From contig CAXWPL010000004.1 in the NCBI GenBank assembly GCA_963666215.2, forward strand, positions 416,001-480,000: DNA of 64,000 nt. The letters run 5' to 3'. The stretch comes from Acidobacteriota bacterium (GTDB lineage Bacteria > Acidobacteriota > UBA890 > WLXD01). Both the position numbers and the translations under genes were made by a program. Positions 48,302 to 57,375 of the stretch are shown piece after piece. The notes beneath the pieces are model-generated. The model was not told the DNA's origin, ran no database searches, and saw only the letters and a list, made by a program, of their open reading frames with translations. The first letter of the stretch is position 1. The number at the start of each line of letters is the position of its first letter.

Positions 48302-49710
48302 GGGGATGTCACAGGCTCCGTTGAAAAAGGGTGACGGTGATCCGACCTCGATAGTGTGTCGGGGTCAATCCACTGGCATGGAGGATCACCGTCATGAGCA
48401 AGAGTCGCAGAACAGAGACAAGTAGGAAAGCGGAGCGCCAAGAGAACCCGCTCCTGGAGGCAGTGGTAGCGGCGCGATCGGATCTACGAGCGCTGGTCAT
48501 GGACGCGGGCTTCGGGGTGTTGGGTTCGCTGCTGGAAGAAGACCGGGCGGAGCTCTGCGGAGAGCGCTACGCGCGGTCACAGCAGCGGCGGGCGTACCGA
48601 CACGGCTACGACGAGGGCTCGCTGGTGATGGGCGGCCGGCGGGTCAAGGTACGCAAGCCGCGGGCTCGGAGCGTCGATGGCCAAGAGCTGCCGCTGCCGC
48701 ACTGGGAGAGGTTCAAGGCAACAGATCCGCTCGAAGAGCGCGCCGTAGAGCAGATCCTGTGCGGCGTCACGACGCGCAAGTACGAGCGCTCGTTAGAGCG
48801 GCTCGACGACGGGCGAGCTTCGTCGGGAACGAGTCGCTCGAGTGTGTCGCGGCGGTTCGTAGCGCGTACAGCCAAGCAGGTGCAGCAGTACCTGGCCCAA
48901 CCGCTCAATGAAGTGGACCTGCCGGTGCTGGTGATCGACGGCACGCACATGGGCAAGCACTTGTTGGTGATCGCCATGGGCATCGACGCGGACGGCGTCA
49001 AGCATGTGCTGGGTGTCGTAGAGGGCACCACGGAGAGCTCCCACGTGTGCCGGTCGCTGCTGCGGCAGTTGATCGAGCGCGGCATGCCCGTCGAACGGGC
49101 GCGGTTGGTGGTAATCGATGGCTCCAAGGGCCTCCGTAAAGCAGTGCGCGACACGTTCGGCGAGTGGGCCCTGATCCAGCGCTGCCGTGTCCACAAGATC
49201 AAGAATGTATTGGAGCATCTGCCAGGGCATATCCGGCCCTGGTTCGCAGCCAAGATCCGCAAGGCGTGGAAGGCGGAGACGGCCACGGCAGCGACCAAGC
49301 AGCTCGACGCCGTGGTCAAGGAGCTGGAGACCGATCACCCCGGTGCAGCGGCCTCGCTCAGAGAAGGAATGCAAGAGACGCTCACCGTCACTCGGCTCCG
49401 AGTTCAGGGGCCGCTGCTTCGAACGTTACGTTCAACGAATACGATCGAGAACCTGAACGGGACGATCAAACACGTCAGCCGCAACGTAAAGCGGTGGCGC
49501 TCCGGGAGCATGATCGTTCGATGGGCGGTTACTGCACTCATCGAGGCCGAGAGCAAGTTCCGGAGGGTTCGTGGCTACCGCGACATCGCCAAGCTCGATG
49601 CCGCACTCAACACCGCCGTCGACGTTCCCCTTGAGCAGGAGCGCCGTACTGCGTAACAATCCCCAACCACTTCACCGTCGCCTTAGTTCAACGGACGGTG
49701 GGACATCCCC
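48302..49710 (+). mobile_element. IS256-family insertion sequence
   Basis: Terminal inverted repeats GGGGATGTCACAGGCTCCGTTGAA / GGGGATGTCCCACCGTCCGTTGAA (20/24, with further GACGGTGA match); no clear target duplication. Confidence 0.9.
48394..49656 (+). CDS. IS256 (Mutator-family) transposase
   Basis: GVTTRKY, VIDG, VIDGSKGL, IQRCRVHK, STNTIENLN DDE motifs, FRRVRGY. Confidence 0.95.
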   Translation: MSKSRRTETSRKAERQENPLLEAVVAARSDLRALVMDAGFGVLGSLLEEDRAELCGERYARSQQRRAYRHGYDEGSLVMGGRRVKVRKPRARSVDGQELPLPHWERFKATDPLEERAVEQILCGVTTRKYERSLERLDDGRASSGTSRSSVSRRFVARTAKQVQQYLAQPLNEVDLPVLVIDGTHMGKHLLVIAMGIDADGVKHVLGVVEGTTESSHVCRSLLRQLIERGMPVERARLVVIDGSKGLRKAVRDTFGEWALIQRCRVHKIKNVLEHLPGHIRPWFAAKIRKAWKAETATAATKQLDAVVKELETDHPGAAASLREGMQETLTVTRLRVQGPLLRTLRSTNTIENLNGTIKHVSRNVKRWRSGSMIVRWAVTALIEAESKFRRVRGYRDIAKLDAALNTAVDVPLEQERRTA

Positions 49711-50267
49711 GCGCAGCTGGACGACCGGCGAGGCCACGTACTGGGATAACTATGGGGCCCCGTCAGCGGGCCCAGCTAGACCGGCACGAGACACTGAAGA
49801 GCCTCGGCCCCCGCAACCTAGAGGCACCGCCCGACTCGCCGCCGGCAAAGCTTTCGGCCCGCTGATCGACAGCACTTCCGAGCACAGCGCGCTCGCGCTG
49901 CCCTTCCTGCGGGACCAAAACTTTCTCCAGTTCCTCCGAGGGCACTCATTCCATTTATTTCTTGTTAGGCGGGACCCCCCGTACGGTTCGGCGGTCGTCG
50001 GACCTAGCTAGCTGGCCAGCCAAGCGATCGTTGGCGCCCAGCCAAGCCAACGCACGCAGTGTCTCCCAAGCCTGACCAAGTCAGGCTCTCGCTCGTAGAG
50101 CGGGTCGCGCGCTGTACGAATCTCTCAATGGCCTCGTCGGGCAACCCTAGTCCCCTCCGAGCTGAAGTGCACCCCGAGGAATTCGAAACCTTTCTCGATG
50201 CGGCCGATAATATATCTTGCTCGGATGCCTGTTCATGCCCACGCCTCAGGATTGAGCTAAGACACAG

Positions 50268-53200
50268 ATGCCAAGCTCTCGCCGCCGGCGCCTTGTTCTC
50301 GGAGCCCTCGCGCTCCTGGCCGCGCTGGCGATCAACAAGTGGTCGCTCGAGATCCTGTTCTCGCGGGATCTCCGCATCACCGACCTAGTCACGCTCGGGA
50401 CCATCTGGGGGTTCCAGCTCGTTGCGACGGTTTTCGGCGCGTGGCTCATTATCGGTAGACCCCAGCTGCCACGACCGCTGCGCGTGGCAGTCGATCACAA
50501 AGTGCTCGGCCCAGCCCTGATGGTGGCACTTGTGGGCGCGACGGCTTTCGGCGCGTACGTCGATGTCACTGCCTACGGGCTCTTGCGAAACGACCGCGAG
50601 ATGCTGCGCCCGACCGCCGAGATGGTGATGGCCGAGGAGGTCATCGCCGAGCTGCGGCCGCACATGCGCGGCGTTGCCCGAGCCCTGCGCAACCTGAGCC
50701 TGCCGGATCGAAGCTCACCGGGACTCTGGAGCGACGAGGTGGAGGTCATCGATCTCGAGGCCGGACACACGCAGCTCATCGACAAGCGCCTCGCGCTGCA
50801 GCAGACGGCCATGCACGCCGCCGATCGCACGGCGGGTTCGCCGCAGGAGCTCGAGCTGTGGAGCCAACTGTTCGCGGACGTGGCGTGGATCGACAGCGCC
50901 GAAACCCATGTGGCGAGCGGTGAGTTCCTCGACGAGGCGCGCCTGCGGTTCCGGACCCTCGTCGACTTCGAGGCCTTGGCGCAACTGTTGGACGGCAGGT
51001 CGGCGACGTTGCGCGGCGAGATCCGGATCGGCTGGCAACGTGATGCCCCTGGAGCGGCCTGGCGCATCGAGCTCTTCGAGACGATCGAGCTGGAGCAGCT
51101 CGCCGCGGCATCGAGCCTGTTCCGCGACGTGATCCCCGAGGTGCTCCCCGACCCTGCCACTCTGCAAGCGGCAACCCGCTCGCTGCATGATGAGCTCACG
51201 GCGGACAGTATTCGCAGCAACGTGGCGGGAGAAAGGAACCGCTTTTCGATCGCGCCGACGCTCGTGCATCCGTCGGTTGCGGTCGTCGACATCGACGCCG
51301 ACGGCTGGGACGACCTCTACTTCATGCCGGCTTGGGGCAAGAATCTACTGCTCCGGAATCGCGGTGATGGCACGTTCGAAGACGTCGCGCCCGCACTGGG
51401 TCTCGACCTCGAAGGCACGGTGGCAGCCCTGTTCGCCGACTACGACAACGACGGCGACGCCGACGTCTTCATCTCGGCAGGACGGGACTCGGCTCGCTAC
51501 CTCCGCAACGATGCGGGTCGTTTCGTCGACCGTTCGGTGCTGGCCGACGGTGCGCCTCTGCCACGACAGGTCACATCGATGTCGGTGGCCGACTTCGACG
51601 GAGACGGCCTGCTCGACGTTTACATGGCTACCTACGCCGCCGGGCCGGTGGATCTGTCGGTTGGCGCGCGGCTTCTGACCTCGGCGCTGGAGGGCGCCGA
51701 ACGGCCCGGCGCCCTCAATCGTGGCGGGCCACCGAACGTGCTGCTGCGCAATGTGGACGGATCCAACTTCGAGCGTGTAGGCGAGGAGACGATTCCTACC
51801 GTACGGCGCTGGAGCTTCCAGGGAACCTGGGGCGATTTCGATGCCGACGGCGACGCGGATCTGTACGTTGCCAACGACTACGCGCCCGACAACTTGTTGG
51901 AGAACCGAGCCGGCCGGCTGGTCGACATCAGTGAGGCCGCGGGCATCGACCGGCGCGGCTTCGGTATGGGCGCGAGCTGGGGAGACTTCGATCAGGACGG
52001 CTGGCTCGATCTGTACATCACCAACATGTCGAGCCACTCGGGGGCCCGCATCACCGCCCGCTTCCCACAGCTCCCCGAGGCCTACAAGGAAGCGGCGCGC
52101 GGCAACTGGCTGCTGCGCAGCGTTACGAATCCAGAAACCGCTCCTTCGTCGCCGGTGAGGCGATTCGAGAAGGTCTCGTCGATCGACGGCACCGGCTACC
52201 CCGTACAAGAAGCGGGCTGGGGGTGGGGTTCGCAGTTCGTCGACCTCGACAACGACGGCGACCTCGACATCTACGCCCCGGCCGGGTACTACACGGCGCC
52301 GCCGTCGGTGGCGACCGATGTCGACACGTGACCCACGCTCTGGCGCTCGGTCGTGCGCGGGGCAGCGAATCACTCGAGGCGAGAGCCAGAAGAGAGACGC
52401 GGGATCGCCGTCCAGCTTCGCGAGGGCGCCTCGTATAGCGGCCGCGAGCGCAACCGCGTGTTCCTCAATCAGCTCGACGAGCCCGGTCGCGACTTCTGCG
52501 AGCTTGGCGGGGTGTCGGGAGCCGACGACATCGGCGACACGCGCTCGTTCTCCAGGCTCGACTACAACCGCGACGGTGCCCCCGACCTCGCGCTCGCCAA
52601 CCTCAATCGCCCGGTTACACGACTGCTGCGCAACGAGATCGCGCCCGACAAGCTCGGCGGCTACGTCGCCATTCGGCTCGAGGGAGGCAATCGGCAGGCG
52701 GCAACGAGCTCGGAATGGAGCACGCGCGACGCTTGTGGAGCACGAATCGAGATCGAGCGCAGCGACGACGTGCTACTGGTGCGCGAGCACCGCTGCGGCG
52801 AGGGTTTTGCCGGGCAGAATTCAAGCACCGTGATCGTCGGCCTTGGAGAGCACGACGCACACTCGCTGACCGTGACCTGGCCCTCCGGCAAGCAGCAGCG
52901 TTCGACCTCCGTGTCGGCCGGCGACCTGGTGACGGTCTACGAGAACCCGGAGCACGCCCCGACCGGCGATGCATTCGTTCACACGCGCTACGCCGTGCCG
53001 CTGCCAGCGTCGCCGCGCCGGGCGAAAGCGAACGATCTCGGCTCGCCTCCGCTGCCTGGGGCCGTTGTGCAAGAATTGACGCGAGGCGCGCGCCTGACGT
53101 TGCTGACCACCATGGCAACCTGGTGCATCGCCTGCCAGCACGACGTGCCACAGCTCGAGCTGCTGCTGGAGCGTTTCTCCGACAGCGAGCTCAACATTGT

Positions 53201-53439
53201 CGGCCTTCCCATCGAACCCACCGACGATGACGCCAAGCTCGCCGCCTGGGTGGAGCAGTTCCAACCACCCTACGAGCTCGTTACCGAGCTGACGGCCGAC
53301 GAGCGCACCGCGGTGATGGCGAGCGTTGCCGAGCTCACCGGCTACGTTTCTTGTTGACGAGCACGGCACGCTGATCGCCGTGCAGCTCGGTGTGCCAACC
53401 GTGTCCGACATCCGCCGACATCTGGGAATCAAACCGTGA
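50268..53439 (+). CDS. Membrane-anchored FG-GAP/VCBS (CRTAC1-like) - ASPIC/UnbV - TlpA-like thioredoxin protein with in-frame UGA at 52329-52331 (candidate Sec) and a small frameshift near 53340
   Basis: Six D(I/Y/F/L)DxDGxxD repeats before the UGA; after it LWRSVV...SYSGRERNRVF, a further DYNRDGAPDL repeat, DACGARIEI...GEGFAGQNS...VTWPSG (UnbV) and MATWCIAC; shifted tail PATFLVDEHG...GVPTVSDIRR ends at TGA 53439. Confidence 0.8.
52337..52363 (+). promoter_or_regulatory. Putative bacterial SECIS element
   Basis: GCUCU-g-GCGC-u-C[GGUC]G-u-GCGC-GGGGC hairpin; upper stem starts 11 nt after the UGA, loop GGUC at +18..+21. Confidence 0.55.
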
Positions 53440-54398
53440 TCGAGCTTTCTCGCGACGACTTCGCCCAGGCCTACGAGCGCGTTTCGCCGCACGTCTATCG
53501 CACACCGATGCTGACGTCGCGGCTGCTGAGCGAGCACACCGGCTTCGATATTCGGCTCAAGGCCGAGCTGTTCCAGCGCGGCGGCTCGTACAAGGTGCGC
53601 GGGCCGATGAACAAGTTCAGCTACCTGAGCGACGAGCAGAAGGCGCGCGGAGTGGTTTGCTCGTCGGCCGGCAACCACGCGCAGGGGGTGGCGCTGGCCG
53701 CCAAGCTGCACGGCATCCGAGCCGTGGTCTGCATGGCCGAGAACGCCACCCAGTCGAAGATCGACGCCACCGAAGGCTACGGTGCCGAGGTCGTGCTGCA
53801 CGGCCAGATTTGGGACGAGGCCAACGAAAAGGCGCTCGAGATTGTCGAGAAGGAAGGGCTGACCTACATCCATCCATTCGACGATCCGCAGCTCATCGCC
53901 GGTCAGGGCACCGTGGGCTGGGAGATCTACCACGACTGGCCGGAAGTCGAAGTGGCGATCGTGCCGATTGGCGGCGGCGGGCTGATTTCCGGCACCTCGA
54001 TGGCACTCAAGTCGCTCAACCCGGATATCCGCGTGATCGGCGTCGAGTCGTCGGGCGCGCCGGCGATGCAGCGCAGCGTCGAGGCCGGCGAGCTGGTGAC
54101 GCTCGAAGAGGTCGACTGTGTGATCGACGGCCTGCGCGTGAAGCGAGTGGGGCAGCACACCTTCTCGGTGGTACAGCGCTTCGTCGACGAGATCGTTACC
54201 CTCCCCGACGAGCAGATTTTCGAGGCCCTGATCTGGACGATGGCGCACTGCAAGGTAACGCCCGAGGGCGCGGCCGCGGCCCCAGTGGGCGCGTTGCTCC
54301 AAGGACTGATCGACGCGCCCGCCGGCTCGAAGGTGGTCTGCGTCCTGAGCGGCGGCAATCTGGGCCTGGACCAACTGCGCGGACTGAGCTGGAACTGA
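53436..54398 (+). CDS. PLP-dependent threonine/serine dehydratase (short form, no ACT domain)
   Basis: LKAELFQRGGSYKVRG, SAGNHAQG, HPFDD, GQGT, PIGGGGLISG, SGGN. Confidence 0.92.
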   Translation: MIELSRDDFAQAYERVSPHVYRTPMLTSRLLSEHTGFDIRLKAELFQRGGSYKVRGPMNKFSYLSDEQKARGVVCSSAGNHAQGVALAAKLHGIRAVVCMAENATQSKIDATEGYGAEVVLHGQIWDEANEKALEIVEKEGLTYIHPFDDPQLIAGQGTVGWEIYHDWPEVEVAIVPIGGGGLISGTSMALKSLNPDIRVIGVESSGAPAMQRSVEAGELVTLEEVDCVIDGLRVKRVGQHTFSVVQRFVDEIVTLPDEQIFEALIWTMAHCKVTPEGAAAAPVGALLQGLIDAPAGSKVVCVLSGGNLGLDQLRGLSWN

Positions 54399-54580
54399 GC
54401 TCGGCCAGCTCGGGCACCTCGGTCCGGCTCCCCACCCGGAAACCGGATCGCCGCGCCCGTCTCTTTCTAAGAGAGGCCCCGTTCGCAGGCATTTGCACGC
54501 CGACCGGGCGAACGACGCAAGATCCCGAGAGCGCACAAAAGGCGCGGGGAAAACTTGTGATGACGTTATATGATGTCGGC

Positions 54581-54808
54581 ATGAGAACGATCGTGGAACT
54601 GCCCAACCGTCAGCTGGATGCGCTCGCGGCGATCTGTCGCGCGGAGAAAATCTCTCGTGCGGAGGCCATCCGCCGCGCTATCGATTCCTGGATCGAGACT
54701 GTCCCATCCGAAGCGGTCGAAGCCTTCGGACTATGGCGCGAACGCGGTATCGATGCGCTGCAGTACGAGGCCTCACTCCGGGCCGAGTGGGACCGGCCGG
54801 AGTCGTGA
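54581..54808 (+). CDS. vapB: RHH/CopG antitoxin
   Basis: MRTIVELP..QLDALAAIC....ISRAEAIRRAI...AFGLW...LRAEW. Confidence 0.85.
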   Translation: MRTIVELPNRQLDALAAICRAEKISRAEAIRRAIDSWIETVPSEAVEAFGLWRERGIDALQYEASLRAEWDRPES

Positions 54809-55170
54809 GAGTCGTCTTCGACACGAACGTGCTCATCGACTACCTCAACGGCGTTCCACAAGCGAAAGAGGAAATCGCACGCTACAAGAAACGGTATGTC
54901 AGCATCGCGACCTGGATGGAGGTGCTGGCCGGTGCCCGCGATGGCGCAGAGATGGACCTGCTGCGTGTCTTCCTTGCAGGTTTCGAGATTGTGGAGCTCG
55001 ACCGGCCGATCGCCGAAGCGGCGATTGAGCTACGGAGGACGCACCGTGTTCGACTTCCCGATGTCATCATTTGGGCGACGGCTCGAACGCTGGACGGGCT
55101 CCTCGTTACACGCAACACGCGCGACTTCCCGGAACGTGACCCCGACGTCCGCGTCCCCTATCGCCTGTAA
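54805..55170 (+). CDS. vapC: VapC PIN-domain toxin
   Basis: VVFDTNVLIDYL, WMEVLAG, LPDVIIWATA, LVTRNTRDF. Confidence 0.92.
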   Translation: MRVVFDTNVLIDYLNGVPQAKEEIARYKKRYVSIATWMEVLAGARDGAEMDLLRVFLAGFEIVELDRPIAEAAIELRRTHRVRLPDVIIWATARTLDGLLVTRNTRDFPERDPDVRVPYRL

Positions 55171-55191: not shown

Positions 55192-57375
55192 ATGAACACG
55201 ACGCTTCCGTTCGATACTGGGCAGTCCCACGCCGACGTCATCGAGGTTGTGCGTCGGTACTGGGGCTTCGAGATGCTGCGGCCGCTGCAGGCCGAGGCGG
55301 TGCGTGCCGGACTCGATCGCCGCGACTCGCTGGTAGTGCTGCCGACCGGCGGTGGCAAGTCGCTGTGTTATCAGGTGCCGCCGTTGTTGGCCGGGCGAAC
55401 CGACATTGTGGTGTCGCCGCTGATCTCTCTGATGAAGGACCAGGTTGACGGCCTGCGCGCCAACGGATATCCGGCGGCCGCCGTGCACAGCGGGCTCGAC
55501 CGGCAAGAGCGCGCCGAGGCCGAGCGCTTTATTGCGTCGGGCGACTGTCGACTGGCGTTCGTGTCGCCGGAGCGCCTGGTGACATCGTGGTTTCTGCAGA
55601 CCGTCGAGCGACTGGGCATTCGCTCGTTCGCGGTGGACGAGGCGCATTGCATTAGCCACTGGGGTCACGATTTCCGGCCCGAGTACCGGCAGCTGGCGGT
55701 GCTCAAGGAACGCATCCCCGGCGCCAGCGTGCACGCCTACACCGCCACCGCGACGCCGCGCGTTCGCGACGACATCGTGGCGCAGCTCGGGCTCGAGGAC
55801 GCCCAGGTGCTGGTGGGACGCTTCGACCGGCCGAATCTCACCTACCGACTGGTGCCGCGGCTCGACCTGCGAGCCCAGGTGGAAGAGATTCTGGCTCGGC
55901 ATACGAACCAGGCGGCCATCATCTACTGCATCAGCCGCAAGGACACCGAGAAGCTCGCCGAGCATCTCATCAAGCGCGGTCACCGCGCCGCCTGCTACCA
56001 CGCCGGTCTCGAGCCAGCCGTTCGCCGCCGCACGCAGGAGGCGTTCACCAACGAACAGATGGACGTGGTCGCCGCGACGGTGGCGTTCGGCATGGGCATC
56101 GATCGCAGCGATGTGCGGTGCGTCATCCATGCCGCGATGCCCAAGTCGATCGAGCACTACCAACAGGAGACGGGCCGCGCGGGTCGTGATGGCCTCGAGG
56201 CCGAGTGCGTGCTGCTCAACTCTCCGGCCGACGCGGTGCGCTGGCGACAGTTGCTGGAGCGCAACGCGCAGGAAAACGTGCCGGCTGCGTCTGGCGTCTC
56301 GGGCATTTCCGATAGCGAGCCGCCGCCGCCCGACCTCTACGACGCCGACGACCCCGGAATCGCGCAGGAAGAGCCTCCGTATCCTTATGAAGAGCCTCAT
56401 GAAGAGCCTCTCGATGGAGGGCCTGTGGATGAAGGGCCTCTCGACCACGACGCGGCGATCCCGCGAGTTGTGGTGGCACGCGAGAGCAAGCTCAGGGCCG
56501 TGACGCCGCCAGCCACGGGGGTCGACCCACAGAAGGCCGCGCTGGAGCTGCTCGACCAGATGCGGCGCTTCTGCACCCCCGGCACCTGCCGCCACCAGGC
56601 GCTGTCGGAGTACTTCGGCCAGACGTACGAGCCCCCGTGCAGCTCCGAGGCTATCGACACCCACGCCGACGGCGATGACGACGACGCTGGCGTCCAGATC
56701 GCCGAAGGCTGTGGCGCCTGCGACGTTTGCCTCGGGGAAACCGACGGCTGGGTGGACGGCACTCGCGACGCCCAGATGGTGCTGTCTTGCGTGGCTCGTC
56801 TCGGCCAGATGGGCACCGCGTACGGCATGAACCACGTGGTCGATGTGCTGCGCGGCGCCGACACCCAGTCGATCCGTTCGCGCGGCCACAACACACTCTC
56901 GACCTGGGGCGTGATGTCGGCAAAGGGACGCAAGGAGTTGCTGCATCTGACCTTCCAGCTCATCGACCAGGCGGTGCTCGAGCGCAGCGACGGCGAGTAC
57001 CCGGTGCTGACGCTCAACGACCGCTCGCTCGAGGTACTGCGCGGCGAGCGCACCGTGCGGCTCGCCCCGGTGCGCGTCCGAGCCGCCAAGACCTCTGCGC
57101 GTGACGCGGCGTCGTGGCACGGCGTCGATGTCGATCTGTTCGAGCGCCTGCGCGGACTTCGCACCGAGATCGCGCGCGCCCGCGACGTGCCGCCCTACCT
57201 CATCTTCAACGACGCCAGCCTGCGCGACATGGCCAGCAGCCGTCCCGAGACTCCACAAGAATTCCTCGCCATCCACGGCGTGGGCGACAAGAAGCTTGCC
57301 GACTTCGGTGAGACTTTCCTCGCCTGCATTGCCGGAGCGCCCGAGTCGATCGAGACCGCCAGCGACACCGCCTAG
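55192..57375 (+). CDS. recQ: ATP-dependent DNA helicase RecQ
   Basis: PTGGGKSLCYQ, DEAHCISHWGHDFRPEY, TAT, QETGRAGRDG, Zn (CRH...YFG...CGACDVC), RQC and HRDC domains. Confidence 0.96.
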   Translation: MNTTLPFDTGQSHADVIEVVRRYWGFEMLRPLQAEAVRAGLDRRDSLVVLPTGGGKSLCYQVPPLLAGRTDIVVSPLISLMKDQVDGLRANGYPAAAVHSGLDRQERAEAERFIASGDCRLAFVSPERLVTSWFLQTVERLGIRSFAVDEAHCISHWGHDFRPEYRQLAVLKERIPGASVHAYTATATPRVRDDIVAQLGLEDAQVLVGRFDRPNLTYRLVPRLDLRAQVEEILARHTNQAAIIYCISRKDTEKLAEHLIKRGHRAACYHAGLEPAVRRRTQEAFTNEQMDVVAATVAFGMGIDRSDVRCVIHAAMPKSIEHYQQETGRAGRDGLEAECVLLNSPADAVRWRQLLERNAQENVPAASGVSGISDSEPPPPDLYDADDPGIAQEEPPYPYEEPHEEPLDGGPVDEGPLDHDAAIPRVVVARESKLRAVTPPATGVDPQKAALELLDQMRRFCTPGTCRHQALSEYFGQTYEPPCSSEAIDTHADGDDDDAGVQIAEGCGACDVCLGETDGWVDGTRDAQMVLSCVARLGQMGTAYGMNHVVDVLRGADTQSIRSRGHNTLSTWGVMSAKGRKELLHLTFQLIDQAVLERSDGEYPVLTLNDRSLEVLRGERTVRLAPVRVRAAKTSARDAASWHGVDVDLFERLRGLRTEIARARDVPPYLIFNDASLRDMASSRPETPQEFLAIHGVGDKKLADFGETFLACIAGAPESIETASDTA

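Follow-up and report, generated by a model that had tools for sequence, protein, structure and literature searches.

An in-frame TGA as a probable selenocysteine codon in a bacterial family of CRTAC1-like propeller proteins

The stretch of DNA considered here ("the window": 64,000 nucleotides of an Acidobacteriota genome, contig CAXWPL010000004.1) contains two open reading frames (ORFs), at 50268-52331 and 52353-53357 of the forward strand, that lie in a common frame and have as their sole separator a single TGA at 52329-52331. Does this TGA end one gene, or is it a codon in the middle of a longer one? An earlier sequence-only reading had taken it to be a selenocysteine (Sec, U) codon, and the arrangement that it started from, two same-frame ORFs parted by TGA alone, is confirmed from the reading frames: reading through the TGA yields 1029 residues, with the TGA as residue 688. 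As set out below, the selenoprotein interpretation finds support in the conservation of the TGA column, the Sec machinery of the genome, the comparison of a downstream hairpin among homologues and the coupling of the column to a distant C-x-x-C motif (CxxC hereafter). In this allele the TGA is very likely to be a selenocysteine codon rather than a gene boundary, and for the family at large the sequence comparisons bring the Sec reading close to secure. The family itself is in all likelihood large and widely distributed, made up of secreted or membrane-anchored CRTAC1-like proteins that have an FG-GAP propeller and an UnbV/ASPIC domain, usually with a TlpA-like domain added.

The TGA column and the propeller fold

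A six-frame search through 41 genomes, comprising that of the window and those of 40 relatives, turned up homologues at 34-39% identity with one TGA each; in 19 of 20 locus segments that TGA falls exactly at the column of residue 688, in the motif D-T-U-S-x-F-W-R-H-V-V. A profile search extended to 401 genomes of the phylum found matches in 175, and the 48 best rows each hold exactly one TGA (phylum-wide tallies here and below count three unpublished genomes, G047, G071 and G166). With 40 further regions added, 20 of them flagged stop-free and 20 with one TGA, 89 loci, 75 of them distinct, could be aligned to the profile: the TGA is at the column in 51, which come from 43 genomes across the phylum, and another codon is there in 24. 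Named public genomes supply the same-column TGA in 12 of 80 loci, under record titles that read Gemmatimonadetes, Mariniblastus, Pirellulaceae (two), Planctomycetaceae, Planctomycetota, Akkermansiaceae (two), Verrucomicrobiales, Acidobacteria, Pyrinomonadaceae and Dehalococcoidia. A profile was also run against 1.84 billion representatives; long multi-repeat FG-GAP proteins crowded the head of the resulting list, and 24 full-length single-unit matches were used.

Two simple ways in which the TGA might have been trivial can be addressed directly. Contigs of 1448-1455 nucleotides (nt) from four runs, belonging to four studies, show zero differences or gaps over 52242-53450 (52249-53450 for run X8). 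Identical contigs from four studies mean that the TGA is neither an assembly error nor private to this record, and its presence at the same column in 51 of 75 loci says the same. Nor are the homologues ever pairs of genes with variable spacing or frame: in all 51 TGA loci, across about 35% identity, the frame is kept across the TGA and the spacing is zero.

Pfam places FG-GAP_3 (116.3 bits, in five stretches) and FG-GAP (67.3 bits) in the upstream part and, after the propeller in the downstream part, UnbV_ASPIC (PF07593, 55.2 bits against a cut-off of 23.4). The sequence-only reading had argued from the sequence DYNRDG, beyond the TGA, that the stop splits one fold, and that argument survives: in the alignment DYNRDG, at residue 765, occupies the invariant DxDxDG columns of the calcium loops in homologues, and strands lie on both sides of the TGA in an AlphaFold model of the read-through protein (30-row alignment as input; mean predicted local distance difference test score, pLDDT, 81.9; predicted template modelling score, pTM, 0.78). 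In that model propeller blades begin at about residue 336 and more blade strands follow beyond residue 730, while residue 688, the putative Sec, is the first residue of a helix (688-699) that is inserted in the propeller. The top match of the model in the Protein Data Bank (PDB) is murine CRTAC1 (9etn_A, E 1.4e-29, template modelling score 0.74 on the target), which is also the sole PDB match by sequence. With propeller strands on either side and CRTAC1 as the top structural match, the TGA is internal to a single fold.

The downstream part ends in a thioredoxin-like domain with the motif WCIAC. Its AhpC-TSA match in Pfam is weak (21.9 bits, below the cut-off of 26), as are the TlpA (21.5 bits against a cut-off of 230), DsbE (20.9 against 123) and ResA matches around WCIAC in NCBIfam, which has no model for the protein apart from these weak thioredoxin-type matches. 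Because the scores stay under the family cut-offs, the C-terminal part is best regarded as of general thioredoxin-fold type and not as a member of a named equivalog. Relatives with a full thioredoxin-like domain bear precomputed PF00578 or PF08534 matches, the model has a helix at 954-969 with the CxxC at the start of this helix 1, and in an alignment of 17 rows (A4) C870 and C873 are invariant. At the other end of the protein the model shows two hydrophobic helices, 3-30 and 37-61, that could be a membrane anchor or signal. TlpA-like domains act outside the cytoplasm; together with the hydrophobic N-terminus, and with the signal-like N-termini of homologues, this suggests that the protein is exported or membrane-anchored.

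Other features of the architecture may be recorded here. Residues 1-331 (50268-51260) have no Pfam match; in the model the N-terminal third starts with long helices, after which comes a curved beta sheet (residues 154-287), and the motifs F-K-V and G-R-x-x-x-G-x-R-E-W of this region are kept in homologues. Some TGA forms (L091-L098) are much longer, with open frames of 1332-1535 residues; non-Sec proteins of similar length (P0103, P0115, P0209 and P0226) have C-terminal tetratricopeptide repeats.

Machinery, hairpin and coupled thiols

As the sequence-only reading had correctly cautioned, no sel genes lie in the window. They are found elsewhere in the genome, which is thus not without Sec machinery: selA (518.2 bits), selB (340.2 bits, or 366.8 with its C-terminal piece included), selD (341.2 bits) and the transfer RNA for selenocysteine (tRNA-Sec, 67.8 bits) all score over their curated cut-offs. 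The selD gene (L009, contig 2 of the assembly, 219892-220839) has one in-frame TGA and is probably a selenoprotein gene itself; selB is about 6 kb away on the same contig. Of the 43 genomes in which a TGA form was verified, 41 have selA, against a background of 301 of 401 genomes in the phylum; the two exceptions (G023 and G236) have a tRNA-Sec above the Rfam cut-off. In two genomes selA lies close to the TGA-containing homologue, about 460 nt downstream in G001 (contig 1, 1155177-1158321) and about 3.8 kb downstream in G007 (contig 9, 32307-38751). Three genomes with a one-TGA homologue, G101, G236 and G317, are 95-99% complete and have a tRNA-Sec of 71-76 bits, above the cut-off, with selA not found even at an E-value of 0.001; the missing selA could be an assembly gap, or there could be another route to Sec-tRNA.

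Bacterial selenocysteine insertion sequences (SECIS) have their apical loop about 16-37 nt from the UGA, with G/U in the loop, according to the spacing rule of the bSECISearch model. Directly 3' of the TGA the sequence-only reading had drawn such a hairpin and likened it to that of Escherichia coli fdhF. The geometry is indeed like that of fdhF, with GGUC at nt 21-24 here and in the members that encode W-R-Q-V-V and at nt 22-25 in E. coli K-12 fdhF, and an apical loop that starts at nt 21, counted from the U of UGA, fits the spacing rule. The hairpin can form (-11.9 kcal/mol) and is kept in the TGA forms among the homologues, while most of the non-TGA forms have lost it; what does not stand is its significance in the window sequence by itself, which folds no better than its shuffles, so that significance can come from the comparison of homologues only.

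That comparison is informative. In an ungapped alignment of 48 TGA forms nt 14-20 pair with nt 26-32 around a loop of nt 21-25. Pair 18:28, in which the synonymous third base of an Arg codon meets the first base of a codon for Ala, Ser, Pro or Thr, shows compensatory changes (CG 25, GC 4, GU 4, AU 2, UA 2). The covariation score, 0.154 against a shuffle mean of 0.096, was reached by none of 500 shuffles and is above that of all six slid registers. The best contiguous-stem hairpin has a mean of -9.35 kcal/mol in 50 TGA forms and of -3.95 in 24 others; where the coding, W-R-Q-V-V, is identical, -7.3 kcal/mol or better is attained by 13 of 13 TGA forms and 2 of 13 others. The P-values for these two contrasts, 2.8e-8 and 1.8e-4, overstate the case, because the sequences are related. 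A hairpin is still at the same place in TGA forms of divergent peptide or sequence (L039, L040, L095 and L105-L107). In the window's own subfamily (L111 and L113-L115) the stem has 6-7 bp and the loop is GGUC in three of four members and AGUU in L111, while many members of the family have a 3-nt loop, G-U-N, closed by C:G. Comparison thus shows a hairpin of putative SECIS geometry to be under selection. A distinct hairpin, with a 7-bp stem from nt 17 and a 6-nt loop, belongs to the members without the thioredoxin-like domain and is clear in L040, L105-L107 and L119.

A further line of evidence comes from the far end of the protein. Of 121 distinct sequences that reach the column in alignment and carry Trp at the fourth residue beyond it, 48 have U (TGA), four have Cys and 69 have some other residue. 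The thioredoxin-like domain is present with CxxC in 41, two and eight of these, respectively, has a degenerate motif in none, none and 38, and is absent from the sequence in seven, two and 23. In other words, and as a co-occurrence among related sequences, CxxC is kept in 41 of 41 U forms that have the domain and in 8 of 46 such forms with another residue. Where U forms lack the domain, a Cys is found two residues on (U-x-C, the +2 Cys) in six of seven, the seventh ending at a contig edge; that Cys occurs in 0 of the 41 U forms with the domain. The Cys forms are P0203 and P0257, both with CxxC intact, L137 and L181. The suggestion of the sequence-only reading that the C-terminal domain would supply a built-in redox partner therefore gains in substance: the pattern agrees with a redox-active Sec for which a resolving thiol, local or tethered, is required, and CxxC would become dispensable when Sec is lost.

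Members without the thioredoxin-like domain (L040, L105-L107, L115, L118 and L119, with the motif D-G/L-U-x-C-x-W) form a distinct subfamily that includes metagenome-assembled genomes (MAGs) of Dehalococcoidia and Planctomycetota. In the first set of uninterrupted homologues the column held E in 12, L in five, D in three, and V, A, S and Q in one each; six database proteins in that set end one residue short of the column. The frequency of E and D brought a metal ligand to mind; this was rejected, the non-Sec residue being variable (E, D, N, S, A, G, Q or Y).

Rival readings and the damaged allele

A number of observations weigh against the selenocysteine reading, for the family or for this allele, and they are best considered together. 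The loci were chosen by their TGA or no-stop flag and are related to one another, so that ratios such as 51 to 24, and the P-values, are measures neither of prevalence nor of independent tests. Cys is rare at the column, with four cases as compared with 69 in which the residue is E, D, S, N, A, G, Q, L, V or Y, unlike what is seen in most selenoprotein families; of the alternation with Cys that had been anticipated, the four Cys forms can be pointed to, but at this position the non-Sec relatives mostly show E, D, N, S, A or G. The search for selA drew a blank in G023 (69% complete) and G236 (95%), and likewise in the unverified one-TGA genomes G101 and G317. The window hairpin taken alone is at chance level (z = 0.35 for a 72-nt fold; 16% of mononucleotide shuffles of the 27-mer fold equally well or better), and its contiguous stem, with a U-U mismatch, is weak (-5.8 kcal/mol), the second weakest of 50 TGA forms. 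Compensatory change is clear in one of the seven stem pairs, the other six varying little or one-sidedly. The stem overlaps the codons of a conserved peptide, and two of the 13 matched non-Sec sequences, L079 and L074, form it too; codon usage by itself is thus able to yield the stem and accounts for part of it. An Rfam scan of 52200-52500, at E-values up to 10, returned a chance microRNA match only and no SECIS family. Finally, the thioredoxin-like domain is cut short in the window allele.

This last point calls for closer scrutiny, since the range singled out by the sequence-only reading, 50268-53439, spans a frameshift of which that reading made no mention. Frame 0 is closed by a TGA that precedes the cis-Pro loop of the thioredoxin fold; the missing tail, PATFLVDEHG…IKP, runs on in frame +1. 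The cis-Pro loop and last strands, before which the window's frame 0 ends, are complete in all 17 rows of alignment A4 and in P0296, the downstream half of a 99% identical relative, which reads …ELTGYDAVPATFLVDEHG… intact and in one frame, with five extra residues at the junction (…TGYDAVPATF…). The 9-nt word CCGGCTACG, expected twice in the intact form, occurs once at this place in the window, and a 17-nt deletion between direct repeats of this word is therefore the likely cause of the shift, its length following from comparison with the P0296 protein. Through it the thioredoxin-like domain loses about 36 residues at its end, in a protein that would have about 1062 residues if intact, and because of this loss the window copy is probably impaired; whether it retains full function is evenly balanced. 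The roughly 1050-residue protein of the sequence-only reading accordingly holds as far as the joining of the ORFs across the TGA is concerned, but its thioredoxin-like domain is cut here by a frameshift and intact only in close relatives such as P0296. Programmed frameshifting at the 3' end was considered and rejected: the homology passes into the other frame ahead of the stop, at the 9-nt word of which the intact relative has two copies, and this is the mark of a deletion.

The alternative that survives best overlaps with the selenocysteine reading. It grants a genuine selenoprotein family and takes the window copy to be a decaying, non-functional allele, which has a serious, if somewhat less than even, chance of being correct. 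The frameshift is in the contigs of all four runs and studies. In-frame tails that align with the frame +1 remnant exist in P0296, P0269 and L111, and the intact tails of P0296 and L111 identify the frameshift as derived; the lost part holds a proline, matching the cis-Pro of the remnant, that is invariant in A4. The mismatched SECIS stem, the low rank of the hairpin among TGA forms, a Mutator-family transposase nearby (48394-49653) and a near-identical second copy in the assembly point the same way. Against these stand 1029 codons that are otherwise open, with CxxC and all propeller motifs intact, the persistence of the allele that follows from its being found in several studies, and the existence of members without the thioredoxin-like domain, from which it follows that the propeller part may work alone. 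An intact divergent paralogue on contig 5 (L055, 919859-922084; 38% identity, same-column TGA in D-T-U-S-T-F-W-R-H-V-V, and WCVPC), which could relax or complement the window copy, stands on the same side.

The remaining alternatives deny Sec at the column altogether. That the TGA is recoded as something else, by near-cognate read-through as Trp, Cys or Arg or by a variant code, might draw on the many residues that non-Sec relatives tolerate at the column, and is very improbable. There is a single in-frame TGA per gene and many genes, the window's included, end in TGA, so that no change of code is indicated; the carriers possess the Sec machinery; the hairpin is at bacterial SECIS spacing; and a chalcogen redox residue is indicated by the Cys forms and by the strict association with CxxC or the +2 Cys. 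Still less probable is an ordinary stop, with a propeller protein and an ASPIC-redoxin protein translated separately. Gene callers and public records do annotate two genes, and a GTG is available seven codons past the TGA, but the stop would fall inside one fold whose blades continue beyond it, at a column for which uninterrupted homologues have a sense codon, with frame and zero spacing preserved in 51 of 51 TGA loci; moreover S-x-F-W-R-x-V-V, following the TGA, is among the best-conserved stretches of residues and yet lies upstream of the starts chosen by gene callers. That the TGA arose by an error of sequencing or assembly, or is a nonsense mutation private to this record, might be argued from the other nonsense lesions that the sequence-only reading noted in the window and from the real frameshift in this gene, but is scarcely credible in view of the identical contigs from four studies and the same-column TGA in 43 genomes and in MAGs of several phyla.

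The features of the selenocysteine reading, as it applies to the window, are collected in Table 1.

Table 1. Features of the candidate selenoprotein gene, in window coordinates
Feature	Position	Strand	Basis or remark
Upstream part, 687 codons: N-terminal hydrophobic helices, beta-rich N-domain, most FG-GAP blades	50268..52328	+	Pfam, model
In-frame UGA, very likely read as selenocysteine; residue 688, motif D-T-U	52329..52331	+	Same-column TGA in homologues, Sec machinery of the genome
SECIS-like hairpin within coding sequence; upper stem 52343-52358 with U-U mismatch, apical loop GGUC 52349-52352	52337..52363	+	Folding, homologue covariation
Downstream part, 341 codons: last blades, UnbV/ASPIC, linker, TlpA-like domain	52332..53354	+	Pfam, NCBIfam, model
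DYNRDG	52560	+	Last propeller blades
UnbV/ASPIC domain	about 52731-52928	+	Pfam
WCIAC of TlpA-like thioredoxin-fold domain	53121-53135	+	Residues 952-956
Likely deletion junction: lone copy of 9-nt word CCGGCTACG	53338..53346	+	Comparison with P0296
TGA closing frame 0 early owing to frameshift	53355..53357	+	Reading-frame analysis
Frame +1 remnant of thioredoxin-like domain (PATFLVDEHG…IKP), stop 53437-53439	53338..53439	+	cis-Pro loop, last strands, helix

The transposase directly upstream (forward strand, 420 residues, IS256-like) scores 157.8 bits. Positions 48768-54854 of the window recur as L022 (contig 1 of the assembly, 763499-769585), with three differences in 6087 bases, all upstream of the gene; the copy is either a recent duplication beside a transposase or assembly redundancy. 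Downstream, also on the forward strand, are an ORF with only a weak RHH_1 match (53390-54805) and a RecQ helicase gene (55192-57372), neither with an evident link to the selenoprotein; a frame that overlaps the former, from 53436, has by eye the look of a pyridoxal phosphate-dependent dehydratase. When the ORFs lying in the short flanks of 41 loci, up to about 1.5 kb away, were compared all against all, the gene itself and high-GC shadow frames alone came out, with no partner of the CcdA/DsbD type.

Known systems, public records and implications

How might such a protein be made, and what might it do? Decoding of the UGA would follow the ordinary bacterial route, the hairpin in the coding sequence, with G-U in an apical loop that begins at nt 21 after the U of UGA, recruiting SelB with Sec-tRNA(Sec). 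The nearest model is E. coli fdhF, in which UGA-140 is likewise in frame and followed by a coding-sequence hairpin with its apical loop from nt 21 and GGUC, and which depends on the same selA, selB, selC and selD machinery that the window's genome has. In the fdhF SECIS a bulged U and the G/U of the loop act in SelB binding. The likeness goes no further than decoding: the protein families are unrelated, the molybdopterin domain of the fdhF product being absent here, and the fdhF loop has 6 nt, in contrast to the 3-nt G-U-N loop closed by C:G of many CRTAC1-like members.

For the protein the closest comparison is with murine CRTAC1 (9etn), with which it shares the FG-GAP calcium-loop propeller and the UnbV_ASPIC domain that is a trait of the CRTAC1/ASPIC family; the Sec helix inserted in the propeller and the C-terminal TlpA-like domain set it apart. 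With the TlpA, ResA and DsbE reductases it has in common a C-terminal thioredoxin fold, W-C-x-x-C and cis-Pro loop, tethered to a putative extracytoplasmic catalytic domain, but its scores are far under their cut-offs and the partner domain is a propeller. An analogy of working mode, though not of membership, is offered by Neisseria PilB, in which a TlpA-like domain recycles fused MsrA/MsrB. The ResA-like WAxxUGC selenoproteins (NCBIfam NF041054) likewise combine Sec and Cys in extracytoplasmic redox chemistry, with the difference that their Sec is within the thioredoxin motif, whereas here that motif is CxxC and the Sec is some 260 residues upstream, in another domain; a match of 15.7 bits against a cut-off of 300 makes it clear that the protein is not an NF041054 member. 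Peroxiredoxins and glutathione peroxidases are, again, analogies for the working mode only, the Sec being placed here in a propeller insertion and not in a thioredoxin fold, and the "peroxiredoxin" label of public records concerns the C-terminal domain only.

A redox relay, Sec to selenenylsulfide to CxxC or +2 Cys, is the mechanism that the co-occurrence patterns moderately favour. The Sec at the N-terminal end of the propeller-inserted helix would be the redox-active nucleophile. Its reaction with an oxidant or substrate outside the cytoplasm, for which a peroxide, an oxidised residue of a protein and an extracellular oxidant are candidates, would be followed by formation of a selenenylsulfide. 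The tethered CxxC, or the +2 Cys where the domain is absent, would resolve this, and CxxC could be re-reduced from the membrane as in other TlpA-like proteins.

The expectation that pipelines would split the gene in two was borne out by every TGA member that was traced in public records. Upstream halves are deposited as proteins of 571-707 residues ending at the column (under "VCBS repeat" or "FG-GAP" names; one cluster includes "VCBS repeat-containing protein [Gemmatimonadota bacterium]"), and downstream halves as proteins of about 330-420 residues that are named "redoxin domain-containing protein", "peroxiredoxin", "thiol-disulfide isomerase/thioredoxin", "ASPIC/UnbV domain-containing protein" or "hypothetical protein", under record titles that include Handelsmanbacteria, Latescibacterota, Vicinamibacteria, Myxococcota and Planctomycetes. 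Searching with the downstream part gave 286 clusters at E-values up to 1e-10 among 8000 scored candidates; among the downstream-half matches listed, 120 of 120 bear CxxC and start past the column. Homologues with a sense codon at the column carry the NCBI name "CRTAC1 family protein".

The literature searched, as far as its accessible text goes, contains no report of the CRTAC1/FG-GAP/ASPIC-UnbV propeller family as a selenoprotein family, although supplementary lists could still name it otherwise, and the papers searched ascribe no selenocysteine or redox function to CRTAC1 proteins. The terms of the family are absent from the main texts of two reviews (PMC13188914, of 2026, and PMC9312934, of 2022) and of the GOS study (PMC2398784), and likewise from those of PMC12013277, PMC13326102 and a preprint (10.1101/2022.07.06.499078). 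The deep-Sep work (PMC12013277) reports nine new families, and those named in its main text are unlike the CRTAC1-type family; BSepDB (PMC13326102) has 111 families, which are listed in its supplement.

Taken at its fullest, the proposal is that of an unlisted and environmentally widespread selenoprotein family, whose 90%-identity clusters number in the hundreds and span at least six phyla, and in which a tethered CxxC or a +2 Cys recycles the Sec of the propeller; we give this whole an even chance. Hundreds of records would be mis-split alike, and one annotation rule could mend them. The family would add a large extracytoplasmic propeller to a selenoprotein repertoire dominated by small thioredoxin-fold proteins and formate dehydrogenases, and it occurs in soil and marine phyla (Acidobacteriota, Gemmatimonadota, Planctomycetota, Verrucomicrobiota and others) whose use of selenium has been little studied. 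Methods that depend on Cys homologues may miss such families; a TGA at a conserved column, taken together with its covariation with a distant motif, can confirm selenoproteins where Cys homologues are scarce. The Sec-to-Cys ratio of this family is unusually high, Sec forms outnumbering Cys forms about ten to one, and Sec loss is accompanied by decay of CxxC. The resulting three-way pattern (Sec with CxxC, Sec with +2 Cys, and neither after loss of Sec) suggests the hypothesis that CRTAC1-like proteins of this kind are redox enzymes. To our knowledge, the bacterial function of the CRTAC1/ASPIC superfamily is undescribed. If the proposal is true, the propeller is a redox enzyme for whose chemistry Cys is ill suited, and the superfamily would have its first catalytic lead.

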